Notes: generated from the sequence alone by a model not told the origin. DNA of 64,000 nucleotides from Candidatus Taylorbacteria bacterium RIFCSPLOWO2_01_FULL_48_100 (GCA_001821135.1 MHSA01000021.1:3956-67955); one strand, 5' to 3'. Numbered from the stretch's first letter, positions 6,981 to 24,325 are shown. Program-made: numbers and translations.

Positions 6981-7303
6981 TGTTAAAAAAAGTAAATCGC
7001 ATAACTACCGAAGGGTTTAGAAAATTAAGTAGGTCAAACTGTATGTTGCATACGGACTTTTTCAGTGTGCGGCTACATCAGACCACACACAAACAGCCGA
7101 GATTTGCAGTTGTTGCGTCTAAAAAGATTGCGCCGACCGCGGTTATGCGCAATCTTCTTCGCCGCCGTCTCTATGAACTATTTGGTAAAAAAATCGGCAA
7201 TATATCTGGAGGCACCGCCGTGGTTGTTTTCGTAAAGAAAGAAGCGAACAAAGCATCTTTTCAAGAACTCAAAGGCGCTGTTGAGAATCTTGATGGTTTT
7301 TGA
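6980..7303 (+). CDS. rnpA: Ribonuclease P protein component
   Basis: 107 aa basic protein immediately after rpmH (canonical rpmH-rnpA-yidC order). Contains the FAVVASKKIAPTAVMRNLLRRRL block, matching the RnpA motif region. Confidence 0.75.
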   Translation: MLKKVNRITTEGFRKLSRSNCMLHTDFFSVRLHQTTHKQPRFAVVASKKIAPTAVMRNLLRRRLYELFGKKIGNISGGTAVVVFVKKEANKASFQELKGAVENLDGF

Positions 7304-8522: not shown

Positions 8523-8652
8523 CTCTCGCCCTTATCCTAAGGGGGAGTACCACGAGCGGAGCGAGGGGGAGGGGGTGGTTTTTCTGTGGGAACAGAAGCA
8601 CCCCTCCGTCTCCCTACGGGAGACACCTCCCCTTATGTTAAGGGCAGGAGGT
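8523..8652 (+). repeat. GC-rich structured intergenic repeat, family R1 copy 1 (CTCGCCCTTATCCTAAGGGGGAGTACC…GAGGGGGAGGGGGT…ACCCCTCCGTCTCCCTACGGGAGACACCTCCCCTTA…GGCAGGAGG)
   Basis: About 130 bp and near-identical to copies at 21289-21410 and 26250-26376, and to a reverse-orientation copy at 36355-36510. It contains several internal hairpins (CCCTTA/TAAGGG, GGGGGAGGGGG/CCCCTCC, TCTCCC/GGGAGA). It lies between the convergent 3' ends of jag and the 8658-9875 gene. Confidence 0.7.
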
Positions 8653-8657
8653 AGTAG

Positions 8658-9875
8658 TTATAGTGCGAGAATCCACAGCGTTAAATCATTTTTGTTTTGG
8701 AAAAGAAGATACTGGTCGTCCGGACTGATGTCTACATTAAATACATCAATTTCTGTTCGTGCGATTTCCGAAAGATTTACAGCGAGGTCGGCGCGGCCGT
8801 CTTCCGCGTCAATTTTCCACACAGAATCATTCGTCTGCGCAGTTCCTTGATACCAGTTGTTTGGGAAACCATTCGGAAGCGCGTCGGGAACGGCGCACAA
8901 TGCAACTGCGCGGTTTTTCTTGCCCCACACGCACTTGTCTGCGAGCGTGGCGAGCCCGAGCGGCACGGTCTCCCCCCTAGTACGATTAAAGAGAGATAGT
9001 GTTGCACTAGATTCATTGCTAGTTGAGGACAGCACAACTGTTCCGCCTCGGCTTGGAAGCGCGGTAAGCCCAACGCCGCTTTCTACAACATCAAGCGCGC
9101 CGTTCTGCGCGCCGACGGCAAACAGATGTCCTGCCATGCCCGCCGAGGCACGCGTTGTTAGAAATATGGAGTCGTTCACCGGCCACACAGCGGCAAGATC
9201 TTTGAGCGGTAAATCAATAATCGTATTTTTGCGCGAGCCGTCCGGCGCGGCGAGTACGCCGCTTGCACCTGTTGCATTTTCAGAAAGGTAAAAAATGGTG
9301 TTGCCGGTCGGCGAAAAGGCGAGTGTGCGAATGTTGCGCGGAAGGAACGAGGCGCGCAGAGCATCGCCCTCACTCGCCGCCGCGCCGACGGTTGCATAAA
9401 AACTTTCAATATATTCCGTTCCCGCCGACTTTTTGTTATAGCGCACAATAACCCCAGAGCCGTCAGGTTTCCAGAGTGCCGCGCCTATTTCTGGAATTGT
9501 TTGATTAGAGATGCGGCGCGCCGTTCCTTCTTCCGCTCCGATTTCAAACAAATGCCCCGTGCCGCGCTCAGCGTAGCGCACGAGCGTTTGCCCTCCGCGC
9601 GAGAAAATCACTGCGCCCGCAACCGGCGTTTCTGTGAGTTGGCGTAAGCGAGGCAACTCGCCATCGCCAACACCAAGGTCTCCCGCATCTTCACCGCCAG
9701 TTCCCAAATCACCAAATCCACCAACCTCACCTGCTTCAGGAAATGCTCCACCCGTTTCTCCTCCGCTAGGTGTTGTTGCGCGCATAAAGAACCACCAATA
9801 CGCAAACGCACCCACTGCTACGACAAGCAGAACCGCAACACTACCCCATATTATTTTTTTGGTCTTGTTGAACAT
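8658..9875 (-). CDS. Hypothetical membrane-anchored protein with Gly/Asp-rich linker and a possible beta-propeller/TolB-like C-terminal domain
   Basis: N-terminal TM, Gly-rich acidic linker, then repeated beta-strand-like blocks. I did not recognise a precise family. Confidence 0.35.
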   Translation of the reverse strand: MFNKTKKIIWGSVAVLLVVAVGAFAYWWFFMRATTPSGGETGGAFPEAGEVGGFGDLGTGGEDAGDLGVGDGELPRLRQLTETPVAGAVIFSRGGQTLVRYAERGTGHLFEIGAEEGTARRISNQTIPEIGAALWKPDGSGVIVRYNKKSAGTEYIESFYATVGAAASEGDALRASFLPRNIRTLAFSPTGNTIFYLSENATGASGVLAAPDGSRKNTIIDLPLKDLAAVWPVNDSIFLTTRASAGMAGHLFAVGAQNGALDVVESGVGLTALPSRGGTVVLSSTSNESSATLSLFNRTRGETVPLGLATLADKCVWGKKNRAVALCAVPDALPNGFPNNWYQGTAQTNDSVWKIDAEDGRADLAVNLSEIARTEIDVFNVDISPDDQYLLFQNKNDLTLWILAL

Positions 9876-9881
9876 AAAGGT

Positions 9882-10955
9882 TTATGGAGGACAATTACCG
9901 CTTTCAAGCCCCCTCCCTTTCACATAAAGCGTTTTAGAATTAGGACATCGGATATAAAATGCAGTTTCTGTTTCTATATTAGTCATACGCTGTCTTAAAT
10001 CAATAGCTCGGTCATTTAATCCAGCCGTTTCCAGTTTTTCCGCGTCCTTTTCTACCTTGGCGCGCGCCGCCAGTAGCATTTGTGATACCGCCGCATTATT
10101 TGCCCCTACATCTTTATTGGCGATATTATAATCAACGCGCGGCAATCCACCCTGCCATGTCCAGTTGGTTGGATTTAATCTATCAAGCAACCCCGTCGGA
10201 ACTAAACAAGTCCCTCCTCCTTTCAAACATTTGTTAATCTGCGCTCGCATATCGGTAGACAACCAATCAACCGCCCCCTCGTAACTTCTCACCACCGTTT
10301 CTTTCGTTTTGATTTCTTGGAGTTTTGGCCTTAATGTATCAAGTTCTTCTTCCAATGCTGATAAGTTTGCGATTTCCTCAGGAGTAAAGTCGCCTTCACG
10401 AAATTTTCTATCCAGTTCTTTAACTCTTACATCAACAGCATCCCCTGCTATTTTTAGATCTTTCGCCTTCGTTGAAATGTTTTGAGCCCTCTGCAACGCT
10501 TCATCAAGAAACTTTCCATATGTATCCTCCACGCTTTGTATCCTCGTCTTTGTTACCGGATTGAGTTTTCCAATCGCGAGACCGATATCTACCAGACGCG
10601 GGTTGATGGTGTAAAGGAGCACATACGACGCGAGCACGGTCGCGAGCCCCCACACGACATTCATAATAACTCCCTTACTTTCGCTCTTGCCGCTCACTGC
10701 CTCCGTCGTCATATACTGGAACCCGCCCCACACGAGCATCAGCACGGCGAGAACTCCTGCGGCCCCTATTCCGAGTTTGTAAATCCCTGTGAGATATGTA
10801 GGGAGTGAAGTAGTTGTCTTTCCCAAATCAGTGATGTTTGGAAGTGGCGCAAGCGGTACATAATCAGTTTGCGCGAGCAACAGCGCAGGAATTACTAGCG
10901 TGGCAAGTGCGCATATTTCCACAAACATCGTTATTTTATACTGTACTTTTTTCAT
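9882..10955 (-). CDS. Hypothetical protein with a VirB2/TrbC pilin-like N-terminal region (signal peptide + two hydrophobic helices) and a long coiled-coil C-terminal domain
   Basis: Signal peptide (…ALLLAQTDYVPLAPLP), then two TM-like helices (GIYKLGIGAAGVLAVLMLVWGGF / VVWGLATVLASYVLLYTINP), then about 220 aa of coiled-coil-like sequence. The pilin-like topology is my inference only. It is the last gene of the T4SS-like locus. Confidence 0.3.
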   Translation of the reverse strand: MKKVQYKITMFVEICALATLVIPALLLAQTDYVPLAPLPNITDLGKTTTSLPTYLTGIYKLGIGAAGVLAVLMLVWGGFQYMTTEAVSGKSESKGVIMNVVWGLATVLASYVLLYTINPRLVDIGLAIGKLNPVTKTRIQSVEDTYGKFLDEALQRAQNISTKAKDLKIAGDAVDVRVKELDRKFREGDFTPEEIANLSALEEELDTLRPKLQEIKTKETVVRSYEGAVDWLSTDMRAQINKCLKGGGTCLVPTGLLDRLNPTNWTWQGGLPRVDYNIANKDVGANNAAVSQMLLAARAKVEKDAEKLETAGLNDRAIDLRQRMTNIETETAFYIRCPNSKTLYVKGRGLESGNCPP

Positions 10956-10965
10956 GTTGCTTTCA

Positions 10966-11075
10966 TACTAATATACTAATGCATACCAATCTACCAATGA
11001 CTACCAATAAAATTCGTTTCTTATTCGTAGACATTCGTATCATTAGTATAATTCGCAGATTAGTATTTATTAGTA
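10966..11075. repeat. TACGAAT-nonamer palindromic element (family R2), full copy
   Basis: Left arm of tandem ~9-nt units (catactaatatactaatgcataccaatctaccaatgactaccaataaa), a short spacer, then an inverted right arm (…attcgtagacattcgtatcattagtataattcgcagattagtatttattagtatc). It lies directly upstream of the ATG of 9882-10955 (start at 10955). Confidence 0.75.
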
Positions 11076-12035
11076 TCAAAATGTAATCATTGTTCTCGCT
11101 TCTCCAAACTGAAACATCGCTTTTGGATTGGTTACCTCAACACTAATATCCGCGCTTCCCGCAGCGCCTTCTTTTCTAAACACAACGCTCTCATCATTTG
11201 GCGAGCCGACCTTTAGATTATTGAGCGTCCAGTTGTATTGTAGAAGTGGCGCGTCTGCTTTGTTGAAAAAGAATGGTTGTGCCGCAACGCGGATTTCCGG
11301 TGCCGTAAGCGTAGTGCCCCTCGCAAGCGCTTTATTCCACAATATGCCGTAGAGCGGATTGTCTTCGTACAAAATAACTTGCGGCGCAGTTGCTTCGGCG
11401 ACTATACGCGCTTCCGCCACCGCGCTTCCGTCAGGCGATTCCACTTCCACCGTTATTTCCGTCGGGCGAAACGGCACTTTTGCATAAAAGGTGAAAATAT
11501 CTCTTCCAACCCCCGACGAACCCTCCGGCACACGGTCGGCAATGCGCCAAGTGTATTTAAGCATTTTCGGGTTGGCGCGCGCGCTCGCGGCACCTGCAAA
11601 AAACGGAACCGCGGCAATCCGCGTCGCGCCGTGGTAAGAAAAGAGCGTCTTGCCTAGGTAAAAAGGCGGAGCGGTGCCGTCCGATTCTGCAACAAGAAGC
11701 ACCGACGCCGGCGAGAGGTTTATTGTTTTTTCTATCATCTCTTCTAATTCAGACATCCTCACCGTCAGCACTGTTTTAGAGCCGAGCTTGCCGGTGCGAA
11801 ACGACGCGCTCGTTTCCCCCTTCCCCTTCCGCACCGATACGCCATTGATTAGCCATTGTATTTCCACATCTGCCGCGCTCCCGCCGCTTAAAATGTGAAG
11901 CGACGCTTGCACGAGCGTATTCGGTCCCGGCTTTTCCGGCGAGAGGTTTATCAGTATCGCGTCAGCGGAAGGCGGCAGCGCGGCAAAAGCAGGTGTCGCA
12001 ACGAGGAATATGAAGATGTATAGTATTTTTTTCAT
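11076..12035 (-). CDS. Hypothetical secreted protein (signal peptide, beta-rich)
   Basis: Signal peptide MKKILYIFIFLVATPAFAALP. No recognised family. Stop/start overlap (ATGA) with the upstream small membrane-protein gene. Confidence 0.4.
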   Translation of the reverse strand: MKKILYIFIFLVATPAFAALPPSADAILINLSPEKPGPNTLVQASLHILSGGSAADVEIQWLINGVSVRKGKGETSASFRTGKLGSKTVLTVRMSELEEMIEKTINLSPASVLLVAESDGTAPPFYLGKTLFSYHGATRIAAVPFFAGAASARANPKMLKYTWRIADRVPEGSSGVGRDIFTFYAKVPFRPTEITVEVESPDGSAVAEARIVAEATAPQVILYEDNPLYGILWNKALARGTTLTAPEIRVAAQPFFFNKADAPLLQYNWTLNNLKVGSPNDESVVFRKEGAAGSADISVEVTNPKAMFQFGEARTMITF

Positions 12036-12376
12036 ACCTTTTTCGGCATTTTTATGCCGGTTTTATCTTCCAATTGTACCACAAGCACCGTGAGCGCGAC
12101 CCCAACCGTTATACAAGGCAATATATTGAGCACTGGAATCGCCTCAATAATCGCAGAGCCGAAAAACGAAGCCGCGCGCTTAGGGTTCACAAACCCTACT
12201 CCGCGGCTCAAAAACCAAAATCCAAATGTGAGGTACGCAATAATTGACACAAGCACGGCGAGCACTTGTCCCAATAAAGGGATAAGATTTAACCCAGCAT
12301 TTACGGCATCAAACAAAACAGCAACCGCAACCATAACAACGCCGGTTGTTTTATCAATTCTAATTTCTTGTTTCAT
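12032..12376 (-). CDS. Small three-TM membrane protein; start moved to MKQEIRID because the upstream Met lies inside the R2 repeat
   Basis: About 114 aa and hydrophobic. Part of the T4SS-like locus. Function unknown. Confidence 0.35.
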   Translation of the reverse strand: MKQEIRIDKTTGVVMVAVAVLFDAVNAGLNLIPLLGQVLAVLVSIIAYLTFGFWFLSRGVGFVNPKRAASFFGSAIIEAIPVLNILPCITVGVALTVLVVQLEDKTGIKMPKKV

Positions 12377-12383
12377 AGAAATT

Positions 12384-12490
12384 ATATATACCAATATACA
12401 AATGTATACCAATCTACAAATGGATACGAATAGGAACAGGAAATATTAGTAGTCATTCGTATAATTCGTATCATTGGTATATTGGTATTA
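12384..12490. repeat. R2 palindromic element, full copy; its right terminus (…ATTGGTATTA) supplies the TAA stop of the VirB4-like gene
   Basis: ataccaatatacaaatgtataccaatctacaaatggatacgaata…attcgtataattcgtatcattggtatattggtatta. The stop codon of 12488-14305 sits at 12488-12490, inside the repeat terminus. Confidence 0.75.
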
Positions 12491-14305
12491 CGCGCTTGCG
12501 CGCAATTCTTCTTTTGCGCGTTTAATCGCTAAGAGTTGCGACGGGTCGGAAGTGATAATCTGGTCTTCTGTGTAGGATGCAACAATTTTAATCGCGACAT
12601 GTTTCAGCCCGACGAAAAAGAGTCCCTCCCCCACATCCGATTCAAGCAAAAGATATTTTTCCTCATCGGTCAGGTTGAATACTTTTTGTATGCGGTCTAT
12701 CACTGCGGGTGATTGCTTCAGAAGCATTTGGATAGACGAGTTCGTTACAATCGGCAATCCATACGGAGAGGAAAGGAAATCGTCCACATCTTGCGTAATG
12801 GTCGCAACACCTAAAAAGTATTTGCGTCCGCGCTTGGCGACAGAAAGAAGAAATGAGGCGGTATCTTCCGAGCGCATCATCCACCACGCCTCATCCACGA
12901 CGAGGAGCCGTTTTTTGAGATTTCGGCGCACGGCGTTCCAGATGTGGTGTGTAACGATGTAAGTTGCGACCGATTTTAGTTCGTCTTCCATATCCCGAAG
13001 GGAAAATACGACAAGATTGCCGTTTATGGACACATTGGATGGGCGATTAATAAAGTTTGCCCAAGTGCCTTTTGTGTATTTGGTAAGCCGCACACGGATG
13101 CTCTCTGTCCCCTCCATTCCCGCAAGCACCATTTCAAAATCAGACAGAAGCGGCGGCTCGGTTTTCCCGAAGTCAGAATCAGGCGTAATGTCTTTAAGCG
13201 CGTAGGTCTCGGTAATCGCTCGGTCCACTAGTGCGTCTTCTTCCGGTGTAAGCCCGCCCAGCATTATGCGAAAAAGCCCGACGAGCGAGATAATGTGCGA
13301 GCGCAAAATGTCCGCAGGCGATTCATCCTCGCGCGGCAAAGGCAAGTCAAACGGGTTGATGTGGTGTTCGGAAGTGAGTGAGATGGAAAAGAACTTGCCG
13401 CCGACCGATTCCGCGAGAAACTCATACTCTTTTTCCGGGTCAATCACAATCACTTCCGTATCAAACATCAGTGTTCGTAAGATTTCCAATTTCATCATAT
13501 AGGACTTGCCGGCGCCCGACTTCGCAAAAACGACCGAGTTGTAGTTTTCCAGCGAGAAGCGGTCAAACAAAACAAGCGAAGAATTATGCCTATTTATGCC
13601 GTACAAGATTCCTTTGTCGGAAGTTAAGTCAAACGAAATGAATGGGAAAATTGAAGAAAGCGGTCCAGAATTAAGTTTAGAATGTACCAGAAGCTCGTCC
13701 GATGCTGTAGGCGCAACCGAACGAAACCCCTCCGCCTGCTGAAAGAGTGCCGGCTTCATATACACGAGTTTCGCTTCCATAATGGACTTCACTTCGCTCT
13801 CAATTTTTTCTAATTCTTCTTCTGTGTCTGCGTACAGCGTAATATATAATCCAACATCAAAAATCTTTTCTTGCGCCTGTTGCAGTTCATCGCGAAGCTT
13901 TTCCAAGTCCTGATACGCGGTCTCAAGCATCGGGTCGCGCACAAACCCTTTTTCTTCGCGCGTGTGGATTTGGCTCTGCACCTCCGCGACTTTTTTCTGG
14001 AACTGCTTCAGCACTTTTCCCGTTTCAACAGGATGTACGAAAATAGAGACATCAAACACTTTATCAAGATTTATAATCGGCGAAAACCAGCCGGCGGTTA
14101 GGAAGCGCGGATAGGAGATGACGAAATAGGTGCGAGCGATTTTCTCGCCCATATTGAGCGTCTTCGGCGTGATTTTGAGAGCCGCGGGCGCGAGCACATC
14201 GCGCAGTTCCAAAACCCCCGACTGGTAAATCTGTTCGGGCAGTATCGGCGTAATCTCGCTCTCGCCACTTTGTTTTTTCTTTTTGAATAGGTCTAGTATG
14301 TTCAT
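12488..14305 (-). CDS. VirB4/TraC/CagE-family type IV secretion ATPase
   Basis: 605 aa. Walker A FAKSGAGKSYMMK and Walker B LLVVDEAWWM (the DEAW motif characteristic of VirB4-like ATPases). Domain order is typical of VirB4/TrsE/PrgJ. Confidence 0.75.
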   Translation of the reverse strand: MNILDLFKKKKQSGESEITPILPEQIYQSGVLELRDVLAPAALKITPKTLNMGEKIARTYFVISYPRFLTAGWFSPIINLDKVFDVSIFVHPVETGKVLKQFQKKVAEVQSQIHTREEKGFVRDPMLETAYQDLEKLRDELQQAQEKIFDVGLYITLYADTEEELEKIESEVKSIMEAKLVYMKPALFQQAEGFRSVAPTASDELLVHSKLNSGPLSSIFPFISFDLTSDKGILYGINRHNSSLVLFDRFSLENYNSVVFAKSGAGKSYMMKLEILRTLMFDTEVIVIDPEKEYEFLAESVGGKFFSISLTSEHHINPFDLPLPREDESPADILRSHIISLVGLFRIMLGGLTPEEDALVDRAITETYALKDITPDSDFGKTEPPLLSDFEMVLAGMEGTESIRVRLTKYTKGTWANFINRPSNVSINGNLVVFSLRDMEDELKSVATYIVTHHIWNAVRRNLKKRLLVVDEAWWMMRSEDTASFLLSVAKRGRKYFLGVATITQDVDDFLSSPYGLPIVTNSSIQMLLKQSPAVIDRIQKVFNLTDEEKYLLLESDVGEGLFFVGLKHVAIKIVASYTEDQIITSDPSQLLAIKRAKEELRASA

Positions 14306-14309
14306 AAAA

Positions 14310-14421
14310 TATCTATACCAATATACTAATGATACGAATTATACGAATGACTACGAATAAAAATTCTTTGTTTACATTGGTAATCATTAGTAGATTGGTA
14401 TGCATTCGTATATTGGTATTA
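14310..14421. repeat. R2 palindromic element, full copy; its terminus supplies the TAA stop of the 14419-15045 gene
   Basis: taccaatatactaatgatacgaattatacgaatgactacgaataaa | aattctttgtttac | attggtaatcattagtagattggtatgcattcgtatattggtatta. It lies directly upstream of the VirB4-like start at 14305. Confidence 0.8.
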
Positions 14422-15045
14422 AGCAACTGCCGCGTGCTGTTCCTCGCCAGGGTTAAATAATTTATAAAACAATTCTATTTCCTCGTCTGTGCCGAGTCGC
14501 GCGGTGCGGAGACCGCACCTCGTCAGCCCCTGCTCTACGATAGAAATGCGTTGTTCAATCTGAGTTCTATTTTCGTTGAAGTCGCTCGTTGCCGCGGCGG
14601 GCGTTTGGTTTTTACGCCTGAGCCCTATCGGCAGCCCACCTTTGAGTTTCACTGGTGTAGGCGAATACGGCACGACTATGAAAAATGTTTTGGACATAAT
14701 AGCCGTGCTTTCCGTAAACGAGCGCACAAACTCTATATACTCGCGCGTCTGAATTTTTAGAAGTTCCGTCTGTTGCGCCTTCACGCGCGTTTCAAGAAGC
14801 GCGATGTAGGGTCTGACATCAAACCGCCGCGAGTGAATAACGATTTGTGCAGAAAAGTCCAGCGTGTTCAAGAAGTTTTGGAATTGCAAAAGAATCGCCT
14901 CTTGATTGTCTTCTGATTTCAGCGCGAAGTTGACGGAAGACACCATAAGAACAGCGCGCAGCCCACCATCGCGTAGGACGAGTATGCCGTCGCGAATTTC
15001 CGAAATCGGCACAAATTCCTGAGTTGGTTTTGTTTTTGGAGGCAT
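14419..15045 (-). CDS. Hypothetical soluble protein; its N-terminal region resembles the N-terminus of the adjacent VirB4-like protein
   Basis: 208 aa with no TM. The block PISEIRDGILVLRDGGLRAVLMVSSVNFALK parallels PEQIYQSGVLELRDVLAPAALKITPK in the VirB4-like ORF. It may be a VirB4 N-domain-like accessory protein. I cannot name a family. Confidence 0.4.
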   Translation of the reverse strand: MPPKTKPTQEFVPISEIRDGILVLRDGGLRAVLMVSSVNFALKSEDNQEAILLQFQNFLNTLDFSAQIVIHSRRFDVRPYIALLETRVKAQQTELLKIQTREYIEFVRSFTESTAIMSKTFFIVVPYSPTPVKLKGGLPIGLRRKNQTPAAATSDFNENRTQIEQRISIVEQGLTRCGLRTARLGTDEEIELFYKLFNPGEEQHAAVA

Positions 15046-15048
15046 AAA

Positions 15049-15100
15049 GTAAATATACGAATATACAAATTATACGAATGATACGAATGTCTACGAATAA
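15049..15100. repeat. R2 element, left arm only
   Basis: atatacgaatatacaaattatacgaatgatacgaatgtctacgaataaaa. It lies immediately upstream of the 14419-15045 start. The matching right arm is at 15493-15540, with the GxxExxY gene between the two arms. Confidence 0.7.
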
Positions 15101-15107
15101 AACTATA

Positions 15108-15524
15108 TCATAATTTTATCTGTCGTATTCGCTCAATCCGCACGATTCTTCGTGGTTTAAGTAGTTTTTCACGAAAATTCACCAACAAACCAAGCCGCAA
15201 CTCAGTTTGTTGTAAGTAATTTTGGATTTGCCTAAAATCCTCTCTTAATAATAGCCGTTTTGCTTTTAATTCCAAAACGACCTGATTCTCTATAAGAAAA
15301 TCAAGGATGTTACCTCCGGTTCCGATGGCTAATTCTCTTTTGTAGTTTATATTTTTTTCTTTAAGATATTTCTCTATTGCATCAGCGTACTGTTTTTCTC
15401 TTGCATACTCGCCGAGTTCATTATGTGCAGCAAAACATATGCCAGTGAGTATGTATGAAAGTTCCGGAAACAGTAGTACTGGCTTTTTGTTCCTATTAGT
15501 AGACATTAGTAGATTAGTATTCAT
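15108..15524 (-). CDS. GxxExxY-family protein (the four-helix-bundle family typical of 23S rRNA intervening sequences)
   Basis: The sequence …PELSYILTGICFAAHNELGEYAREKQYADAIEKYLKEKNINYKRELAIGTGGNILDFLIENQVVLELKAKRLL…FRQIQNYLQQTELRLGLLVNFREKLLKPRRIV matches the GxxExxY / TIGR04256-like pattern well. The annotated N-terminus (MNTNLLMSTN…) is a translated R2 repeat, so the true start is uncertain. Confidence 0.65.
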   Translation of the reverse strand: MNTNLLMSTNRNKKPVLLFPELSYILTGICFAAHNELGEYAREKQYADAIEKYLKEKNINYKRELAIGTGGNILDFLIENQVVLELKAKRLLLREDFRQIQNYLQQTELRLGLLVNFREKLLKPRRIVRIERIRQIKL

Positions 15525-15540
15525 TCGTATATTGGTATTA
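15493..15540. repeat. R2 element, right arm only
   Basis: ctattagtagacattagtagattagtattcattcgtatattggtatta. Together with 15049-15100 it forms one palindrome interrupted by the GxxExxY gene. Confidence 0.7.
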
Positions 15541-15945
15541 CTATTTTCTGGTGGTGGTATGCGAAATGTCCAGCGTCCATGTTAAGTCCTTCAACTTTCC
15601 TTCCGTCAATTTTGGAATAGTCGGCGGGTTCGTGTTTTGCGCAGGACTTTTCGCGGATGGCGCGCGCGGCACTTTACGCCATAAGTACAATTTTTCCGAC
15701 AAGTAATAGCGGATGGCGGATTCAAGCACAAAAACAAACGGCTTGTTGTTTATTTTCCAAAACGCGAGCGCGAGCGCGAGCGCGGCGACTGGCGCAATAA
15801 TGAGAATTGCGACGATAAACGGCAAGAAGCGGTAGAGAATAAAAGAAAGCCCCGCTCCGCCGACAAGGTAAATGAACTGCTTGACGGTGAGCGGTCCAAA
15901 CAGGCGGTCTTCTATGTCTATAAATTGCGGGGTTTGATAACGCAT
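15541..15945 (-). CDS. Small two-TM membrane protein, possibly VirB3/PrgI-like
   Basis: 134 aa. A hydrophobic hairpin (…LVGGAGLSFILYRFLPFIVAILIIAPVAALALALAFWKI) followed by a hydrophilic tail. It lies adjacent to the VirB4-like gene, as VirB3/PrgI genes usually do. Assignment rests on topology and context only. Confidence 0.3.
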   Translation of the reverse strand: MRYQTPQFIDIEDRLFGPLTVKQFIYLVGGAGLSFILYRFLPFIVAILIIAPVAALALALAFWKINNKPFVFVLESAIRYYLSEKLYLWRKVPRAPSAKSPAQNTNPPTIPKLTEGKLKDLTWTLDISHTTTRK

Positions 15946-15952
15946 ATGCGTT

Positions 15953-16062
15953 TTATACCAATATACTAATGTTACTAATGATACGAATGTCTACGAATAA
16001 AAAATCTCTGTTTCCATTTGTAGTCATTGGTAGATTGGTATGCATTCGTATATTGGTATTAT
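15953..16062. repeat. R2 palindromic element, full copy; supplies the TAA stop of the 16059-17138 ORF
   Basis: ataccaatatactaatgttactaatgatacgaatgtctacgaataaaa | aatctctgtttcc | atttgtagtcattggtagattggtatgcattcgtatattggtatta. Confidence 0.8.
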
Positions 16063-17138
16063 TCTATTGGCTCACGATAAGGGTCTTTTGGATAATTACT
16101 CTGTGTTGATGTTGATTGTGGCGAATAATTTGGCGCGGCAATCGGCAAGTTTTTCGGCGGTTCGGTGGTTGGTGCAAATCGGTACTTACCTTCTGTTTTT
16201 TGTTCCTGTTCTTTCCCCGTCTTATTTGTAGCCATTTGTAGATTAGTATTCATTCGTATATTGGTATTCATATTTCTCAAAATCTCCCGCACTGGCCGCA
16301 AAATCTCCATATTCACCACTTGTCCAACCGCCATCGCGCGGTCGCGCGGTAGGCGCAAGCGGCGCGTGAGGTTGTCTACAAAATTCACCGGCTGTGTTAG
16401 CCCCAACATAACAAGCCCCGCCTCGCTCACCAATTCTCCCGTTTCTTCCACATTTAACCCGAACTTTTTCGCCACTCCTTCAAGACGAGATAAAAACCCA
16501 ACGCTCTCCAGCGACTGCTTCACTTCAATCGGCGTTTTGCGGAACGCGTCGTTTATTCGGTTGTCGTCGTACGCAGTGCCACGTTTGATATCGGAGAGAA
16601 GAGTTTGTAGCGTATAGCGTGTAGCGTGTAACGTAGATTCGGGGGGAGTGGGTAATTCTTTGCGGATGAGAACGGGGCGAGGAGGGGCTGGGGGTAAGTT
16701 GGTAAGTTTGGAAGTTTGTAAGTTGGGTGGCGTAGTAGTTGGTTTTGTTTCTGTTTTATTCGTAGACATTCGTAGATTAGTATTCATTCGTATATTGGTA
16801 TTAATATTGGTATTAAAAATCTCTTTTTCAACTTCCCCCGCAATCGCCCGCGCCTGCTCGGGCGGCAATAATAATTCACTCGCGAATTCGTTTTCTGCTT
16901 GTTTTGTGTCAATGATCTGTAGAAGTATTGCGCCTACTATGTAATTAAACTTTACTCGCTGTTCTTTTGATAGATTATGTTTTTCTGCAACACGAACAGT
17001 CGCCGCTGTTGCTTCTGGCGAAGTAATATAATCCTGCGTATCTTGCGGTAATTTTTTTAACGCCCTTATTTTTTCTTCGTTTGTAAATTTCATATTTTTA
17101 TTATACCCAGAGCGTTGCATTGACTGGATTTGAAACAT
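16059..17138 (-). CDS. Uninterrupted 359-codon frame that runs in-frame through two R2 half-elements; either one protein with repeat-encoded NTNIRMNTNL(R/Q)M segments or 2-3 small genes separated by repeats
   Basis: The translation contains NTNINTNIRMNTNLRMSTNK and NMNTNIRMNTNLQMATNK exactly where R2 half-copies lie (16757-16815 and 16233-16270). The first 13 codons overlap the VirB6-like gene, so the real start is probably MKFTNEEK… near 17093. Confidence 0.3.
   Translation of the reverse strand: MFQIQSMQRSGYNKNMKFTNEEKIRALKKLPQDTQDYITSPEATAATVRVAEKHNLSKEQRVKFNYIVGAILLQIIDTKQAENEFASELLLPPEQARAIAGEVEKEIFNTNINTNIRMNTNLRMSTNKTETKPTTTPPNLQTSKLTNLPPAPPRPVLIRKELPTPPESTLHATRYTLQTLLSDIKRGTAYDDNRINDAFRKTPIEVKQSLESVGFLSRLEGVAKKFGLNVEETGELVSEAGLVMLGLTQPVNFVDNLTRRLRLPRDRAMAVGQVVNMEILRPVREILRNMNTNIRMNTNLQMATNKTGKEQEQKTEGKYRFAPTTEPPKNLPIAAPNYSPQSTSTQSNYPKDPYREPIE
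16233..16270. repeat. R2 element, right-arm half copy embedded in a coding frame
   Basis: catttgtagattagtattcattcgtatattggtattca. Confidence 0.6.
16757..16815. repeat. R2 element, right-arm half copy embedded in a coding frame
   Basis: ttattcgtagacattcgtagattagtattcattcgtatattggtattaatattggtatta. Confidence 0.6.
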
Positions 17139-19023
17139 AAGCCAACTGAGCAGCTTGCTCGGGATATGCCACAGCCCCAGTTATTTCGTTCAATATCGCT
17201 GTTATTTCATTCGGCATAAGATTTCCATTTTCCATAAGATCGCGAAGATGTTGCGGTCGCATCCTTCTAATTATATCTGGATTGACGCGTGCTTCATGAG
17301 AAAGTTCTCGCGCTTGGTTTGGACGAAGTATTGCAACGCGCCTATCCATTTCTGCGTGTGTTATTGGTGGTGCACCTGCCACTGGTGGTGTCGCAATCGC
17401 TTCAATTTCAGTAAGGCGTTGTTCGTTTTGTGTGTCTCGTTCCACATTTCTCCGCGCCTCACGAACTTTGTCTTGTTCTTCCGGTGTCAGACGGTTGTAA
17501 AGACCTGTTATCTGTTCTGGTGAAAGAGTACCGGTTCTTTCTAACGCCACCCTATCTCTTGCCGAAAGTTTCTCATACGCTTTCCTGCGTTGGCCTTCTG
17601 GAAGGTTTGCGAGGTATTGCGCCTGCATGGCTGGGTTATTGCGGAACCCTTTCATTGTTTTTTCTACTTCTTCATCGCCCACTGTGCCGAAAGTACCCTT
17701 CTCCTGCATTTCTTTGTAACTTTTCCCACCGATTTTCATTGACTGCAAGCGGTCGGCGGTGCGAAGAGCCATGCGTGCAAGCGGGTTGGTAGACGCTTTT
17801 AGCGCATCGCTGTTTGTCGCAGCGCGCGCAAACCCTCCAATCGTGCGCGCCGCGACGCCCCCCGCAAGTCCGGTAACCGCTCCCTGCCCCCATTTGCGGA
17901 GACCTTGCCCCCAGCCCATTACCATAGAGCCGCCGTATGCTCCCATATTTTTTGCGATAAGGAGTGTCGCGGCAATGGCGACAATGAGAATCAAATAGTT
18001 TATAACAATCCCGATATTCCCCGACGATTCGGATGTCATCAGCGCGGCAAATGACGCTTCGTTGTTTTGGATTTTCAAGAGTTCCGCCATACCGCCGCTC
18101 TGAATCGCATTGGCGACCGCGTAGTTAAGCGCCATATATACTGGGGCGAAAAATGTATAAGAAAAAAGCGCGTGCCACCATTTATCCGTATGTGATTTCA
18201 TTCCGGGAAAAACCCACGCCACAAACGCGAGCGGCGCGAGAATCATCACAAACATCAGCACCACAGCGCGGACGATAAACAGCACTGCGGCGGCGAAGAA
18301 GATGAACGCAGTAACAAGGAAGAATACCGAGCCGAGAATAGTCGCAAGCCCCACTTTCATAAAATTGTCGGCAAACCCGCCCGCCGCCGCCATAGCATCT
18401 GTCGTTGTTTGCCCGCCTCTCGCATCCATCACGCTCTGGAGTCGCAAGCCCTCCATATATATATCGGAGAGTCCCGCTTTTTCAGTTGTTTCTACGCCGT
18501 TGACGATGAGGTTAGGCCGCATTGCGTCGTAGAAGTGAAGCGTCGCAATGTTGCCTGCGTCAATAATCGCTTTGGTGATAAAGAGCGAGAAGTTTATCAG
18601 AAGCGCCATTATGATTACATTCAGAAGCAGTTTCTTTATTTCCCCTCCACCAAGCCCGAGAATAGTCCGTATGCCTATCCAAAGTAAAATAAAAATGAAG
18701 CACAGGTTTGCAATGTCGCGAAATACCGTCCAGCCGACAGACACAATCGGCACTTTCTCTATCAATTCGCCAACTCTGCCGATGCTGAGTTCCACTGAGG
18801 CATTCAGTATTGCGCCGGATATGTTCAACACTTTGGAAACAATCGTAAGAACGATGTTGCCTAAGTCGGCGAAGACGCTCGTAATCACATCATGCCAGCC
18901 CATCGCGCCGATAATTTTACCCGCGACATACCCAACGGCACCTTCCTGCGCAAACGCAACTCCCGCGCCGATCGGCGCCAGTATCATTCCAGCAAGCACT
19001 ATGATGATAAGCAGTTTTTTCAT
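17101..19023 (-). CDS. VirB6/TrbL-like polytopic membrane protein with a long hydrophilic C-terminal domain
   Basis: 640 aa. Signal peptide, at least six TM helices in the first ~400 aa, and a Gly-rich segment (GWGQGLRKWGQGAVTGLAGG). The C-terminus is charged and alpha-helical. It sits in the same operon as the VirB4-like gene. Family call is by topology and context. Confidence 0.4.
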   Translation of the reverse strand: MKKLLIIIVLAGMILAPIGAGVAFAQEGAVGYVAGKIIGAMGWHDVITSVFADLGNIVLTIVSKVLNISGAILNASVELSIGRVGELIEKVPIVSVGWTVFRDIANLCFIFILLWIGIRTILGLGGGEIKKLLLNVIIMALLINFSLFITKAIIDAGNIATLHFYDAMRPNLIVNGVETTEKAGLSDIYMEGLRLQSVMDARGGQTTTDAMAAAGGFADNFMKVGLATILGSVFFLVTAFIFFAAAVLFIVRAVVLMFVMILAPLAFVAWVFPGMKSHTDKWWHALFSYTFFAPVYMALNYAVANAIQSGGMAELLKIQNNEASFAALMTSESSGNIGIVINYLILIVAIAATLLIAKNMGAYGGSMVMGWGQGLRKWGQGAVTGLAGGVAARTIGGFARAATNSDALKASTNPLARMALRTADRLQSMKIGGKSYKEMQEKGTFGTVGDEEVEKTMKGFRNNPAMQAQYLANLPEGQRRKAYEKLSARDRVALERTGTLSPEQITGLYNRLTPEEQDKVREARRNVERDTQNEQRLTEIEAIATPPVAGAPPITHAEMDRRVAILRPNQARELSHEARVNPDIIRRMRPQHLRDLMENGNLMPNEITAILNEITGAVAYPEQAAQLAYVSNPVNATLWV

Positions 19024-19029
19024 AAGTGA

Positions 19030-21195
19030 TTATGGGACTTGGATGTTGATGGTACTTACTGCACCAGAAATCTGAATTCCTGCAGTATCTGTAATTTCGG
19101 TTATAAGTCCGTAAGTTTCTCCTCTTGTTGCACTCGTAGGCGTAAATTCATATCCAACCGCAATCCGTTCTCCCGCCACTACATTAAATGTTTTTGTGGT
19201 CTTATAAAATCTCGGTTCATTGTTTACGAATTCTTCTTCAAGTTTTATTTCACCAGTCGTTTCATTTTTTACTCGCACAAGAATCTTTGAGAATTCTTGA
19301 CTAGGCGCAAAGTCCTTAAATACCCCGTTTTCCTTTTTCGTTATCATAACGCCAATCCGCGCATTGCTAAGCGGCTCGTTTATTGTGAATGCAGCGGCAT
19401 CCGTTTTTACTTCCACATTTACGCTCGCCGTGAGCGTCGGTGTAGTGTTTCCTCCTGTTCCTGTTGTTGCAGATGTTATCGGCGGCGGCTCTGCCGTAAC
19501 GCCCGACTGCGGTACCATACTCGCTGCATTGCCTTGTGTAGCTTTGCCGAATACTTCAACTTCTGCAATAGCAAGGGGGTGTACATCGCCAATATCAACT
19601 ATCCGTACATATCTACCCCTTTTAATGTTTGTGGTTTTAATGGAAAGTGTGTCGCCTGTAAAGTCCGAAGCGTTGTACTCTTTAGCGAATAGCACGGTTA
19701 ACGGGTCCGCGCCGAGGATTTCCACCTTGAATTTTCCTTGATTTAGCGTGTTTACATAAGTGCCCCAAGTTCCAACCGTCTTCCAGTCGCCTGTAAGACG
19801 ATAAATGACAATCTCGTTTATTTCATCAACTACCCATCCTTGTATTTTACTTGTTGCGTCAGTTTCAAGATCAACTCTCCAATAATTACCGCTTGTGCAA
19901 GCGAATGAGCCATAATAGATACTCCCTACTGCTTTTTGATTATTAACTGCCGCTTGTGCAAATGGGTCCTGCACTGTTATTGCTCCGAGCCTATCGCAAT
20001 TATCGAGTTGCGCCGCTTCTTTTCCTAACGCAATGTTCCCCGTTTTTATTTCAGAAAGAGATGTTACTCCGCCAGCTCCCGCGCTTCCTACTCGCTTGTT
20101 TATTTCCTGCCTCGTCGGGTCTATAGCGTTTGTCCCTGCCGTGTTGAGTAGCGCATCGTCTCCTTGATTTCCTTGTCGCTGTATTCGATCTTGTACTGTC
20201 ACAAAACTCTCTCCTGTTACAGTTACGCTCGCCTTGCTCGCGCCGCGGAGACCGCCTCTCGCTGACGAGAACACCTGTCGTAGCCCGTAATTCACGAGCG
20301 CTTGAAATACTTCGTTGATTTCGTCCGCCACCTCAAACTTGCGAAGTTCCGAACCAAACACATTATTTAGTTGGCCGTTTATAAGAGAGCCCGGAGTTTC
20401 CACTTTGTATTTAAGGCACACTTTCGCGCTGCCCTCCCCCGTTCCTTCGTTTGGACCCTCCGACCAATCAGTACATTTTTTATATGACAAAAATCCTCTT
20501 CCTTCAGAAAGCTCCCGCAGTTTTTCATTGGTTTTCCGCATAAGTTCCGTATTAAGCGCGTCGGATGCGAGAATGTACGCGCCGAATTGGTTGTTGCGCG
20601 GGTCTGAAGTAAGCGCGTGGAAGGTGTTCCACCCGCCGTTTGCGATAAACCCGCCACCCGTGAACGCACCATACGCATTCTTTTGAATATCAGTCAGGCG
20701 GCAGCCGATGTATTGCTTGCGCGATGAGCCGGTAGAAAGCCATAAGTTGAGCCGCAGGCGCAAGTCAAACGGACTGCAGAGGAGTTGCCCGATGCCCCCC
20801 AATTGCGTTTCAATAAAGTTTCCCGCAGTTATGTCCGCTATATTGGTGAAGAATCCTGCGGGGTCGGTTACGAACGCCGGGCCCCCCTCAAAATCGCTGT
20901 TTATCCAATCCACAATAGAGCCGGTAATTTCGTTAATAAGCGCTTCTTTGAGAAAAGTTACCAATCCGTCCAGAATACACTCTTTGGTGGTTTGCGAAGA
21001 TTGTTGGAGATTCCCATAGGATACTTGCAAAGCGACAGCGGCGTCGTAACTTGGCACAAAAAGTCCGAGAGGTGTCGGCGGCGGAGCAAATGGTATACAA
21101 CTAACAACCGCGTGAACGCGCTTGGTTGGTACAAAAAGCGCGGGAACTGCGATAGCGGTAGCAAGAAAGAAAATTGTAATTTTTTTCCAACGCAT
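19030..21195 (-). CDS. Large secreted protein (721 aa) heading the T4SS-like locus; function unknown
   Basis: Signal peptide MRWKKITIFFLATAIAVPALFVP. Cys-containing, with a C-terminal beta-rich / Ig-like region and a Thr/Pro-rich segment. Confidence 0.4.
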   Translation of the reverse strand: MRWKKITIFFLATAIAVPALFVPTKRVHAVVSCIPFAPPPTPLGLFVPSYDAAVALQVSYGNLQQSSQTTKECILDGLVTFLKEALINEITGSIVDWINSDFEGGPAFVTDPAGFFTNIADITAGNFIETQLGGIGQLLCSPFDLRLRLNLWLSTGSSRKQYIGCRLTDIQKNAYGAFTGGGFIANGGWNTFHALTSDPRNNQFGAYILASDALNTELMRKTNEKLRELSEGRGFLSYKKCTDWSEGPNEGTGEGSAKVCLKYKVETPGSLINGQLNNVFGSELRKFEVADEINEVFQALVNYGLRQVFSSARGGLRGASKASVTVTGESFVTVQDRIQRQGNQGDDALLNTAGTNAIDPTRQEINKRVGSAGAGGVTSLSEIKTGNIALGKEAAQLDNCDRLGAITVQDPFAQAAVNNQKAVGSIYYGSFACTSGNYWRVDLETDATSKIQGWVVDEINEIVIYRLTGDWKTVGTWGTYVNTLNQGKFKVEILGADPLTVLFAKEYNASDFTGDTLSIKTTNIKRGRYVRIVDIGDVHPLAIAEVEVFGKATQGNAASMVPQSGVTAEPPPITSATTGTGGNTTPTLTASVNVEVKTDAAAFTINEPLSNARIGVMITKKENGVFKDFAPSQEFSKILVRVKNETTGEIKLEEEFVNNEPRFYKTTKTFNVVAGERIAVGYEFTPTSATRGETYGLITEITDTAGIQISGAVSTINIQVP

Positions 21196-21288: not shown

Positions 21289-21410
21289 TCTCGCCCTTAT
21301 CATAAGGGGGAGTACCCGAGCGAAGCGAGGGGGAGGGGGTCTAACACAGAAACAAACAACCCCTCCGCCTCGCGGACTCGGCACCTCCACTTAGGAAAAG
21401 GGCAGGAGGT
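21289..21410 (+). repeat. R1 GC-rich structured repeat, copy 2
   Basis: tctcgcccttatcataagggggagtacccgagcgaagcgagggggagggggt…cccctccgcctcgcggactcggcacctccacttaggaaaagggcaggagg. Located between the 21416-22402 gene's 3' end and the 19030-21195 gene's start. Confidence 0.7.
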
Positions 21411-21415
21411 AAAAT

Positions 21416-22402
21416 CTAAATTCCAGATGTCGCTCTCCATAACGCATAGCCGTTTTCGTTTTCATTGTATGAGATGCCACGCGTTTCTAGAAAATTACGT
21501 AGCGCCGTAAGCGATTCTCCGAGGCGCGGCGCAGCATCCAAGTAGCGCGCAATCGCCGACACTGTTTTGATGGGGTCGTCTAATGCAACACTCATACCGC
21601 GAATACTCCCCCCTATTTCCATTGCTGTATTTGCAAAACGCAAATGCACGGCGAGCGCGCTTTGTGGAACTGATATTTTCATAGCCGCTTTTCCGAGATT
21701 GTTGTACGCAAGCGAAATCGGCGTTAGGTTCGCAAGGTCAAGCCGCGCGGTCTCTTGGTTCGGGTCTTGTATTGCACGCTCAAAAACCGCGAGTTCGTTC
21801 TCGCGCGACGGCCACGGCTTTTTGAGCACAGCGCCGAGCGTGTTTCCGTACGCGCGAAGCGCGCTTTCATTTTCTTCATTGAATATTTCTACATCTTTCT
21901 CCGTAAATAGTTGCGGGGCTTCCTCCGGAACGCTTGCCGACACGGTGTCTATAATTTTCGCAATTTCATTTTGCGAAAGCGGCAACCCTTCTTGCCTAGA
22001 TGATAGGTATGTAGCAAACAGTTCGCGCGCGAACCGTTCCGTATCGGGAATGTCTTTTTTCGCTTGCGGATTCACCTTTACGGCGATAGTTGCGGAATCA
22101 AGCAAGGCGTCTGCGCCGGCAATTAGCGGATTTCTCCCGCTTTTTATTTCCTCCGCGTCCCCCATTCCATCTACATCTGTATCCGGATTCAGCGGGTCAG
22201 TACGCCATAGTTCCTCCTCCCAGTCCTTCAAGCCGTCTTTATCGGAGTCGGCAATCAAAGCGGCGGAGCCGAGCGCGTCTGCCGGCGTTTTTGCTTGCGC
22301 AGATATTTCCTCTCCTTGGTTTTTATACTCGCCATATACAATAAAGCCGCCGAGTCCAGCAAGGACAGAAAGCGAAAAAACAAGAAAAGAGTGTTTGCGC
22401 AT
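21416..22402 (-). CDS. Secreted protein with thrombospondin-type-3-like Ca-binding Asp repeats
   Basis: Signal peptide. Repeats of the form DSDKDGLKDWEE, DPLNPDTDVDGMGDAEE. Confidence 0.4.
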   Translation of the reverse strand: MRKHSFLVFSLSVLAGLGGFIVYGEYKNQGEEISAQAKTPADALGSAALIADSDKDGLKDWEEELWRTDPLNPDTDVDGMGDAEEIKSGRNPLIAGADALLDSATIAVKVNPQAKKDIPDTERFARELFATYLSSRQEGLPLSQNEIAKIIDTVSASVPEEAPQLFTEKDVEIFNEENESALRAYGNTLGAVLKKPWPSRENELAVFERAIQDPNQETARLDLANLTPISLAYNNLGKAAMKISVPQSALAVHLRFANTAMEIGGSIRGMSVALDDPIKTVSAIARYLDAAPRLGESLTALRNFLETRGISYNENENGYALWRATSGI

Positions 22403-22443: not shown

Positions 22444-23391
22444 ATGAAGCGTGTGTTTTCTTTTTATTTTTTTACAATACTCGGTTTGTTTTTTGTTTTT
22501 TCTGCTATACACGCAGAAGGATGGAAGTTTCCGCGCGAGATGCGACTAGGCGCTCGCGGTCCGGATGTTTTTGCGCTTCAGAGGACTCTCAACGAAAATA
22601 TGCAGACGCGCGTTTCGGAAAGAGACGCGGGTTCGCCAGGCAATGAGACGAATTATTTTGGACCGGCGACCGCAAGGGCAATTGTGGTATTTCAGCGACA
22701 AAATGCAATTACGGGAGAAACGGGGCGCGTTGGTCCGGCGACACTGGTGATGTTGAATAAAAAATTAGCGCAGAATATCAATCCCGTTAGAAGTAAGGAA
22801 CCTGTGGTTCCTGCCGATTTGCCTACGGCAAATCGGACTTCTAACGGGACACATCCCAACTCTCGCAACCTAGACCAATTTCTGGATATTGTTGAACAAG
22901 TAGGTGTAACACAAGGCCGTTCTGCGGGGGATTTACAAAAACTTTCGGAAGAAATGCGCTCCTTTGCGCTTTCTACCACCACTGATTTTTTTACTGAGTT
23001 CGCACAAAAAGCGCGCGGCAATTCAATCTCCATTTCTTTAGAATCGCCGTTCAAAAGCCGTATCGGCTCTTTGTTGGAAAAATTCGCTGGCGTGTTCGCT
23101 TTGCGGGCTGACGCGCAAGCACCGTCTTTCGGCGGAATGGTTGTTTATGTATTCCCATGTACTTGCAGCGGTAATTGGCTTGTGGGTATGGTTCCGTTAT
23201 CTATTCCGACTATTTCTTTAATCACTCACTATCAAGGCACTCAAGCTTTTGCTTGGTTTAATGCGCCATTCACATTGTTTATGAAAGGTAATTATATCCC
23301 GCAAGGCGCGCCGTGTTTGTTTACGGTACCGTTTGCGTGCATCCCACTTCCCTCGCAAGCGCAGACCACTCCTATACTTGGCTCATCATAA
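22444..23391 (+). CDS. Secreted protein with an N-terminal peptidoglycan-binding (PG_binding_1-like) domain and a Cys-containing C-terminal domain
   Basis: Signal peptide. PGBD-like block LGARGPDVFALQRTLNE…YFGPATARAIVVFQRQNAITGETGRVGPATLVML. Confidence 0.5.
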   Translation: MKRVFSFYFFTILGLFFVFSAIHAEGWKFPREMRLGARGPDVFALQRTLNENMQTRVSERDAGSPGNETNYFGPATARAIVVFQRQNAITGETGRVGPATLVMLNKKLAQNINPVRSKEPVVPADLPTANRTSNGTHPNSRNLDQFLDIVEQVGVTQGRSAGDLQKLSEEMRSFALSTTTDFFTEFAQKARGNSISISLESPFKSRIGSLLEKFAGVFALRADAQAPSFGGMVVYVFPCTCSGNWLVGMVPLSIPTISLITHYQGTQAFAWFNAPFTLFMKGNYIPQGAPCLFTVPFACIPLPSQAQTTPILGSS

Positions 23392-23450
23392 GTAGATAAA
23401 CATACGAATATACGAATGATACGAATCTGCGAATGGCTACGAATAATACA
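23391..23450. repeat. R2 element, left-arm half copy (overlaps the last codons of rsmA)
   Basis: agataaacatacgaatatacgaatgatacgaatctgcgaatggctacgaataatac. Confidence 0.6.
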
Positions 23451-24219: not shown

Positions 24220-24325
24220 AATACCAATATACGAATGCATACTAATATACAAATAGATACGAATAAAGATAGTGAGCATTCGTAGTCATTCGTATACATT
24301 CGTACCATTTGTAGATTGGTATATA
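24220..24325. repeat. R2 palindromic element, full copy; directly upstream of the rsmA start and encoding the last ~14 aa and stop of uvrD
   Basis: aataccaatatacgaatgcatactaatatacaaatagatacgaataaagatagtgagcattcgtagtcattcgtatacattcgtaccatttgtagattggtatatatc. The uvrD C-terminus …DIYQSTNGTNVYE* is read from the right arm. Confidence 0.75.

Follow-up and report, generated by a model that had tools for sequence, protein, structure and literature searches.

A dnaA-proximal operon with type IV secretion components and no relaxase gene nearby in a Candidatus Taylorbacteria genome

A 64,000-nucleotide (nt) stretch from Candidatus (Ca.) Taylorbacteria bacterium RIFCSPLOWO2_01_FULL_48_100 (GCA_001821135.1, MHSA01000021.1:3956-67955), here called the window, carries on its minus strand an operon encoding components of a type IV secretion system (T4SS). 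A preliminary description, made by a model from the sequence alone, had placed eleven genes of this operon between 9882 and 21195. According to the listing of open reading frames (ORFs), only ten lie in that range; the run is co-oriented and uninterrupted from 8658 to 21195, and the eleventh ORF (8658-9875) falls outside that range, 6 nt beyond its lower end. All operon ORFs are intact, and in guanine-cytosine (GC) content the operon is like the other parts of the window, with no anomaly. The operon is flanked by housekeeping genes, with dnaN (4077-5174), dnaA (5387-6733), rnpA (6980-7303), yidC and jag on one side and ksgA (23437-24279) and a UvrD-type helicase gene on the other. Positions 2488-24305 of the window match, at 100% identity throughout their 21,818 bp, contig MHRR01000004.1 of GCA_001822615.1, the 667-kb assembly of Ca. 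Taylorbacteria RIFCSPHIGHO2_02_FULL_47_18 (class Paceibacteria), which agrees with the reduced, likely episymbiotic genome that had been proposed. This assembly is an entry in Table S1 of a survey of Patescibacteria (PMC12102498), where it is listed as Paceibacteria with VirB4 marked as present and the clade unstated. The features of the locus are collected in Table 1.

Table 1. Genes and repeats at the T4SS locus, numbered from the first letter of the window (aa, amino acids; TM, transmembrane; AF2, AlphaFold2; Ig, immunoglobulin; FnIII, fibronectin type III)
Feature	Position	Strand	Basis
Last operon gene, membrane-anchored protein, 405 aa	8658-9875	-	one N-terminal TM segment
VirB2-like T4SS pilin, 357 aa	9882-10955	-	PF18895 in orthologues, topology
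Ig/FnIII-repeat secreted protein, 319 aa	11076-12035	-	AF2 model, Foldseek
Small membrane protein, 114 aa, accessory gene	12032-12376	-	public gene-call start
VirB4-family ATPase, 605 aa	12488-14305	-	NCBIfam, Pfam and PDB matches
TrsD/TraD-type soluble protein, 208 aa	14419-15045	-	NCBIfam matches, VirB4 alignment
GxxExxY/PD-(D/E)XK_3 protein, 138 aa	15108-15524	-	PF13366 8.9e-20, TIGR04256 2.6e-18
PrgI/VirB3-family small membrane protein, 134 aa	15541-15945	-	PF12666
DPYRE-tail soluble protein, 344 aa	16059-17093	-	public gene-call ATG
VirB6/TrbL-like polytopic membrane protein, 640 aa	17101-19023	-	topology, homologues
First operon gene, secreted protein, 721 aa	19030-21195	-	signal peptide
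Upstream syntenic gene, 328 aa, N-terminal anchor, TSP3-type repeats	21416-22402	-	PF18884 7.3e-4
R2 palindrome, intact copies between cistrons	10953-11069, 12376-12491, 14303-14422, 15943-16062		
R2 palindrome, split copy enclosing the GxxExxY gene	arms 15043-15102 and 15494-15541		
Second dispersed G-rich repeat of ~125 nt (…CGAGCGRAGCGAGGGGGAGGGGGT…)	21289-21411, 8524-8653, third copy around 26280-26303		

The VirB4-family ATPase scored 348.7 bits against the NCBIfam model NF045971 (conju_CD1110; cut-off 325, E 6.5e-104), matched P-loop_TraG (3.4e-24) and AAA_10 in Pfam, and resembled the crystal structure of the C-terminal domain of Thermoanaerobacter VirB4 (PDB 4AG5, E 5.3e-40). Both nucleotide-binding motifs are intact, Walker A as AKSGAGKS (aa 261-268, nt 13502-13525) and Walker B as DEAW (aa 471-474, nt 12884-12895), as expected of the ATPase of T4SSs in general. 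At least 579 VirB4 relatives were found in species-representative genomes, the best 80 of them at 73-80% identity. The 208-aa protein matched three VirB4 models at N-terminal positions of their profiles and also the TrsD/TraD family, the matches including NF045975 (2.3e-10), NF045971 (7.5e-6, profile positions 2-101) and NF041427 TrsD (2.7e-4), with every score far under the curated cut-offs; a TraC-like PF26593 match is also on record. Aligned with VirB4 aa 28-123, it showed 27% identity (E 0.01). Among the 80 closest relatives, a separate gene of this type adjoins virB4 in 77, typically 1-16 nt apart, and the protein is about 58% identical across species. By these alignments, we regard TrsD as a separate protein paralogous to the N-domain of VirB4, encoded next to virB4 as in the T4SSs of the Patescibacteria clade. 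That TrsD and VirB4 are one gene split by the R2 palindrome described below was considered and rejected, since the two are separate in 77 of the 80 relatives.

The other membrane components were assigned with differing ease. The 134-aa protein passed the PrgI model PF12666 (38.4 bits, cut-off 27), also matched TcpE (1.4e-4) and was found in 75 of the 80 relatives; a PrgI/VirB3 protein is likewise characteristic of the Patescibacteria-clade T4SS. In the hydrophobicity scan, the 640-aa protein shows a signal peptide followed by about five TM segments, and its C-terminal ~250 aa form a hydrophilic tail. Its own score against TrbL (PF04610) is 17 bits (E 0.0054), under the cut-off of 25.9, and weak TrbL matches occurred in 5 of 35 orthologues. 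Among its database homologues, about 25 of 92 carry PF04610 or PF19590, and three (P0102, P0105 and P0084) exceeded the TrbL cut-off on rescanning. Comparison of the orthologue profile with R388 TrwI/VirB6 by hhalign gave E 0.004 over aa 221-312, with a probability of only 8%; a PDB sequence search with the same profile returned no match beyond coiled-coil noise from the tail. These data point to a divergent VirB6/TrbL-like protein. The pilin also falls short of its model by itself, with 22.6 bits (E 1.1e-4) against a cut-off of 26.6 for PF18895 (T4SS_pilin), which was matched by 41 of 46 orthologues (best E 4.7e-10). Its signal peptide and two TM segments fit VirB2. The pilin domain spans aa ~30-120 and is followed by a variable, charged C-terminal extension of ~240 aa, conservation being confined to the N-terminal third. 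A VirB2-like pilin near virB4 is another trait of the Patescibacteria-clade T4SS.

The preliminary description had named these same five proteins as a VirB4/TraC-type ATPase with Walker A and DEAW motifs, a VirB6/TrbL-like polytopic protein, a VirB3/PrgI protein, a soluble protein paralleling the VirB4 N-terminus and a protein of VirB2-pilin-like topology, and each of these readings is supported, the VirB6/TrbL assignment as a probable one. Two outcomes had been singled out there as contrary to a T4SS, a failure of the ATPase against VirB4 models and a match of the polytopic protein to an unrelated transporter family; the ATPase scored above the VirB4 cut-off, and no such transporter family was matched.

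Gene order was compared across the 80 loci with the best VirB4 matches. The lineage-named records among them are metagenome-assembled genomes of Paceibacteria/Parcubacteria, and many others bear generic or automatic labels only. The recurring order is uvrD-ksgA-(328 aa)-721 aa-VirB6-(DPYRE protein)-PrgI-TrsD-VirB4-(small TM protein)-Ig protein-pilin-propeller, then jag-yidC-rnpA and dnaA-dnaN. The arrangement in which uvrD/ksgA, the T4SS, jag-yidC-rnpA and dnaA-dnaN follow one another is common to dozens of Paceibacteria species. A chromosomal position near dnaA, dnaN, rnpA and ksgA without a nearby relaxase is itself typical of the Patescibacteria-clade T4SS. Given that VirB4 is 73-80% identical across the best 80 loci, that gene order is conserved and that the GC content is ordinary, the operon is a vertically inherited core locus rather than a mobile element.

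The components of conjugation were sought in 51 ORFs of the window, of which 46 were scanned with Pfam and 5 had housekeeping-only Pfam matches on record. None of them matched a family of VirD4/TcpA-type coupling proteins (T4CPs) or of relaxases, so that both marks of a conjugative system are missing within the window, as had been noticed before; integrases, VirB1, VirB8 and VirB11 were likewise not found among these ORFs, nor an att-type flank in the 64 kb. These results bear on whether the operon might be the mating-pair-formation (MPF) module of an integrated conjugative element that transfers DNA, with its relaxase, oriT and coupling protein located beyond the window. VirB4 is indeed closest to the VirB4s of Firmicutes conjugative transposons (CD1110 family), and in Patescibacteria T4CP genes are often distant from virB4 while VirD4-like genes are common (PMC12102498). 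However, the operon occupies the same chromosomal place, from ksgA/uvrD to jag-yidC-rnpA-dnaA, in dozens of species, its divergence tracks lineage, its GC content is unremarkable, and 64 kb hold neither integrase, att-type flank, relaxase nor T4CP. Relaxases are, moreover, present in only 103 of the 3,035 Patescibacteria genomes surveyed (PMC12102498). The direct repeats of ~125 nt that bracket the operon were considered as att sites and rejected, since a third copy near 26280 marks them as a dispersed element and the locus is syntenic across species. We therefore consider a conjugative element very improbable.

The operon agrees closely with what has been published for this phylum. In the survey of 3,035 genomes by Quinonero-Coronel et al. 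(2025, Microb Genom, PMC12102498), the Patescibacteria VirB4 proteins form a monophyletic clade nested in MPF-FATA, TrsD is their most frequent partner, PrgI/VirB3, VirB6 and VirB2-like pilins occur near virB4, T4CP genes rarely do, and the T4SSs of Paceibacteria lie close to dnaA, dnaN, rnpA and ksgA. Wang et al. (2023, Cell, PMC10633639) found the T4SS cluster and its pilins essential for the epibiotic growth of Southlakia epibionticum, whose T4SS has neither a relaxase nor a coupling protein. In a 2025 review (PMC12857230) the T4SS and pilins are likewise listed as essential in S. epibionticum, and a pilus is discussed as a possible conduit. A 2026 preprint (bioRxiv 10.64898/2026.06.21.733656) also considers such a conduit and reports tubular structures, and possible T4SS pili, where parasite and host meet. 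We conclude that the operon is, very probably, an origin-proximal and vertically inherited T4SS of the Patescibacteria clade, derived from the MPF-FATA conjugation machinery of monoderms, that serves epibiotic interaction and not conjugation. The preliminary view of a secretion, piliation or cell-contact machine rather than a conjugative module is supported by these data and is also the published one (PMC10633639, PMC12102498).

Several conserved partners encoded in the operon are unannotated. The 721-aa secreted protein has, besides its signal peptide, a conserved, mainly helical N-domain (about aa 45-325) without a relative in Pfam or the PDB. An F-type-lectin/CBM32-like domain follows at aa ~380-555, and the C-terminus is a beta-sandwich (aa ~590-720, assigned with confidence). 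The N-domain has conserved cysteines and the motifs WINSGFxGxPAFVTDP, LCSPF, GGW..W, PQNNxYGA, GxGFLSxKKC, TPGSxI..QL and ADEINEI, and in homologues it is joined to varied C-terminal modules (discoidin, Ig-like). A short DUF4141 match was detected just after the signal peptide in two homologues, in one of them above the cut-off (31.8 vs 30); DUF4141 proteins adjoin traJ in Bacteroides conjugative transposons. Against R388 TrwJ, the N-domain profile reached only E 0.12 over 14 columns, and the protein does not qualify as a VirB5 by sequence similarity.

The DPYRE-tail protein, which lacks a TM segment and any Pfam or PDB match, consists of a helical domain of ~100 aa, a Pro-rich linker and, in an alignment with 18 orthologues, an invariant C-terminal DPYRE(P). 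The helical domain is duplicated here and single in the orthologues. Read from the first in-frame start at 17138, the ORF has 359 aa (16059-17138). Of the 80 loci, 62 have an ORF with this tail in the interval from virB6 to prgI, at about 8.1-8.9 kb in the full-length ones (L001-L080), the tail being encoded here at 16059-16085. It may serve as a docking peptide. The DPYRE motif was also considered as a signal shared among several proteins; this was rejected, as it occurs once per locus.

The 319-aa protein, found in 76 of the 80 relatives, is all-beta in its AF2 model (pLDDT 82.5), with three tandem Ig/FnIII-like beta-sandwich domains, and Foldseek matched it to tandem FnIII/Ig arrays (E 6.5e-8). 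These three sandwiches led us to reject it as the missing VirB8/TcpC-like part, which would have an NTF2 fold. The 405-aa protein is syntenic in 64 of the 80 relatives; its orthologue profile weakly matched TolB chains (E 0.0054), and PD40 repeats were present in 3 of 40 orthologues, so it is probably a TolB-like beta-propeller. The small membrane protein, detected in 28 of the 80 relatives, has three to four hydrophobic segments (the full ORF, 12032-12412, has 126 aa) and no family match in Pfam or NCBIfam. A gene in the position of the 328-aa gene occurs in 38 of the 80 relatives; its membership of the operon is uncertain because a copy of the boundary repeat lies between the two. Profiles of the 405-aa and 328-aa proteins gave no VirB8-like match in the PDB.

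These partners invite a more specific reading, in which the 721-aa, DPYRE-tail and Ig-repeat proteins, conserved in Paceibacteria, are unrecognized core T4SS parts and, with the extension-bearing pilin, form an import conduit for host macromolecules. The 721-aa protein would then be a VirB5-like tip adhesin selecting a host glycan, the DPYRE-tail protein would dock on the ATPase as adaptor or substrate, and the Ig-repeat protein would be part of an envelope-spanning structure. We hold this to be rather doubtful.

The intergenic regions carry a palindrome of ~110 nt, R2, whose core motif ATTCGTATATTGGTAT was counted 27 times in the window, where 0.02 would be expected. The preliminary description had R2 separating every gene of the operon, whereas it is present at only 5 of the 10 junctions. 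Four junctions lack it (9875/9882, 12032/12035, 17093/17101 and 19023/19030), and the 16-nt junction 15524/15541 has no more of R2 than the terminal part of the split copy's right arm. Folded as RNA, the four intact copies each give a single long, imperfect hairpin of ~105 nt (dG from -32 to -36 kcal/mol, z around -5 to -6), for which there is no Rfam family. In relatives, R2 is mostly absent from the TrsD/VirB4 junction. Two half-copies (16223-16270 and 16757-16804) lie inside the ORF of the DPYRE-tail protein and are translated in frame as the peptides NTNIRMNTNLRMS and NTNIRMNTNLQMA, which begin at aa 113 and 291; each half-copy comes after one copy of the ~100-aa helical domain.

The GxxExxY gene occupies the loop between the two arms of the split copy, and the right arm supplies the codons for its first residues, MNTNLLMSTN. 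Among the 80 related loci, a GxxExxY gene stands at this position in only 1, and for this reason R2 with its cargo looks like a mobile insertion. Within the run, this gene is an insertion and has no part in the T4SS. A similar arrangement is found where ORFs sit in intervening sequences of 23S rRNA. The second, ~125-nt repeat lies at boundaries of transcription units, bracketing the T4SS operon exactly, with its third copy downstream of the uvrD-like gene. Scans for promoter and terminator consensus gave results near background and were uninformative.

Since repeats have spread between genes and even into coding sequence, and VirB8, VirB1, T4CP and relaxase are missing from the operon, it might be asked whether an ancient conjugation system is decaying here and its remnant no longer functions. 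We find this scarcely credible. The ORFs and the Walker motifs are intact, VirB4 and TrsD retain 73-80% and ~58% identity across species, and the cluster has been kept in a reduced genome of 667 kb, while the homologous system is essential in Saccharimonadia (PMC10633639).

By analogy with characterized T4SSs, VirB4, aided by TrsD, would dock on the membrane via PrgI/VirB3 and power a VirB6-based translocon, and the pilin would polymerize to form a pilus or tube that displays the long C-terminal extension at the surface. The lectin, Ig and propeller proteins may cross the envelope or attach to the surface of the host; an adhesin role is suggested by the lectin-like domain encoded in the first gene. 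The whole machine would serve the epibiotic interaction with a host bacterium, through protein export or uptake of host macromolecules and without conjugative DNA transfer.

Some observations weigh against this interpretation. Neither a VirB8-like protein nor, with Pfam and NCBIfam, a VirB1-type hydrolase was found in the operon, the nearest cell-wall enzymes being a PG_binding_1 protein (22444-23391, plus strand) and an M23/LysM peptidase (29652-30680, plus strand). The VirB6 and pilin assignments fall under the Pfam cut-offs and depend on orthologues and homologues. VirD4-like genes occur in most Patescibacteria, usually far from virB4 (PMC12102498), and other parts of the 667-kb genome could hold a gene for a coupling protein. 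Essentiality was established in Saccharimonadia, from which the role in Paceibacteria would follow by homology, and transport may be either export or import.

The direction of transport matters for one further alternative, a nucleic-acid import machine that brings host DNA or RNA into a cell unable to make nucleotides. The ComB system of Helicobacter is T4SS-related and offers an analogue, as does the archaeal Ced system, whose CedB (DNA import) weakly matches the C-terminal region of VirB4 (E 2.1e-9). Nucleotide synthesis is absent in these organisms (PMC12857230), and a cultivated relative has been linked to feeding on host RNA (bioRxiv 10.64898/2026.06.21.733656). Yet the CedB match reflects only the shared ATPase fold, and none of the operon's proteins was identified as binding nucleic acids. 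In S. epibionticum, competence needs ComEC and type IV pili, and comEC can be deleted with the cells remaining viable while the T4SS is essential (PMC12857230); DNA uptake via ComEC is therefore not the essential role. Import of nucleic acids seems to us unlikely.

Elsewhere in the window, four genes of RNA turnover (37595-39487, 39502-40020, 40901-42511 and 50176-51705) encode PNPase, an NYN-domain nuclease, a CCA/poly(A) polymerase-type enzyme and RNase Y, a cluster of some note given the RNA-based parasitism proposed for the phylum (bioRxiv 10.64898/2026.06.21.733656). Two genes for nucleotidyltransferase toxins of the AbiEii type (type IV toxin-antitoxin/abortive infection family) are located at 28551-29237 and 31008-31652, and an ORF6N/Rha-like regulator at 32978-33523. 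A 661-aa protein with a signal peptide (26385-28370) matched nothing in Pfam nor, by tblastn, in any of the 80 related loci and may be a lineage-specific surface protein.

Nearly all of the ultra-small Patescibacteria have a chromosomal T4SS gene cluster beside the replication origin. Few other machines have been shown to be indispensable to the epibiotic life of so large a part of bacterial diversity, and this locus is a clean and complete example from Paceibacteria in which the one pilin is extended. The preliminary description had suggested that such a machine may be poorly characterized. This holds for its function but not for its composition, distribution and essentiality, which are already in the literature. 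Both the operon type and this genome have been described in papers of 2023-2025, and no new kind of system is involved. The residual interest of an already catalogued locus lies in the repeat and GxxExxY insertions and in the unannotated conserved partners (lectin-bearing, DPYRE-tail, Ig-repeat and TolB-like propeller proteins), which are candidate adhesin, adaptor or envelope-spanning parts.

Among known systems, the closest is the Patescibacteria-clade T4SS (PMC12102498; SEML1_0006-0019 of S. epibionticum, PMC10633639), which has VirB4, TrsD, PrgI/VirB3 and a VirB2-like pilin in common with this operon as well as a VirB6, to which the 640-aa protein probably corresponds, and is likewise chromosomal, near dnaA/dnaN/rnpA/ksgA and without a relaxase or nearby T4CP. 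In contrast to the clusters of Saccharimonadia and Microgenomatia, in which 2-11 short pilins are arrayed, this operon has a single pilin with a 240-aa extension, and no peptidase or lysozyme gene follows virB4; the lineage-specific R2 hairpins and the inserted GxxExxY gene also set it apart from published Patescibacteria T4SSs. With the Gram-positive MPF-FATA systems it shares the CD1110-type VirB4, the PrgI-type membrane protein and the absence of outer-membrane core proteins, and in the pGO1 subclass a TrsD-type protein precedes VirB4 as it does here. It differs from them in lacking a relaxase, a T4CP, a VirB1-type hydrolase and a VirB8-like (PrgL/TraM/TcpC) protein, in having a VirB2-like pilin, which is absent from the Gram-positive systems (PMC12102498, PMC12857230), and in consisting of core chromosomal genes outside any mobile element. 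Compared with MPF-T (Agrobacterium VirB, R388 Trw), VirB7, VirB9, VirB10 and VirB11 are absent, whereas the VirB2-type pilin, VirB3 and VirB4 are shared, as probably is VirB6, for which the similarity to TrwI is marginal. In R388, trwJ (virB5) lies shortly upstream of trwI (virB6); here, the gene directly upstream of virB6 encodes the secreted 721-aa protein, which occupies a comparable place without sequence similarity to TrwJ/VirB5.

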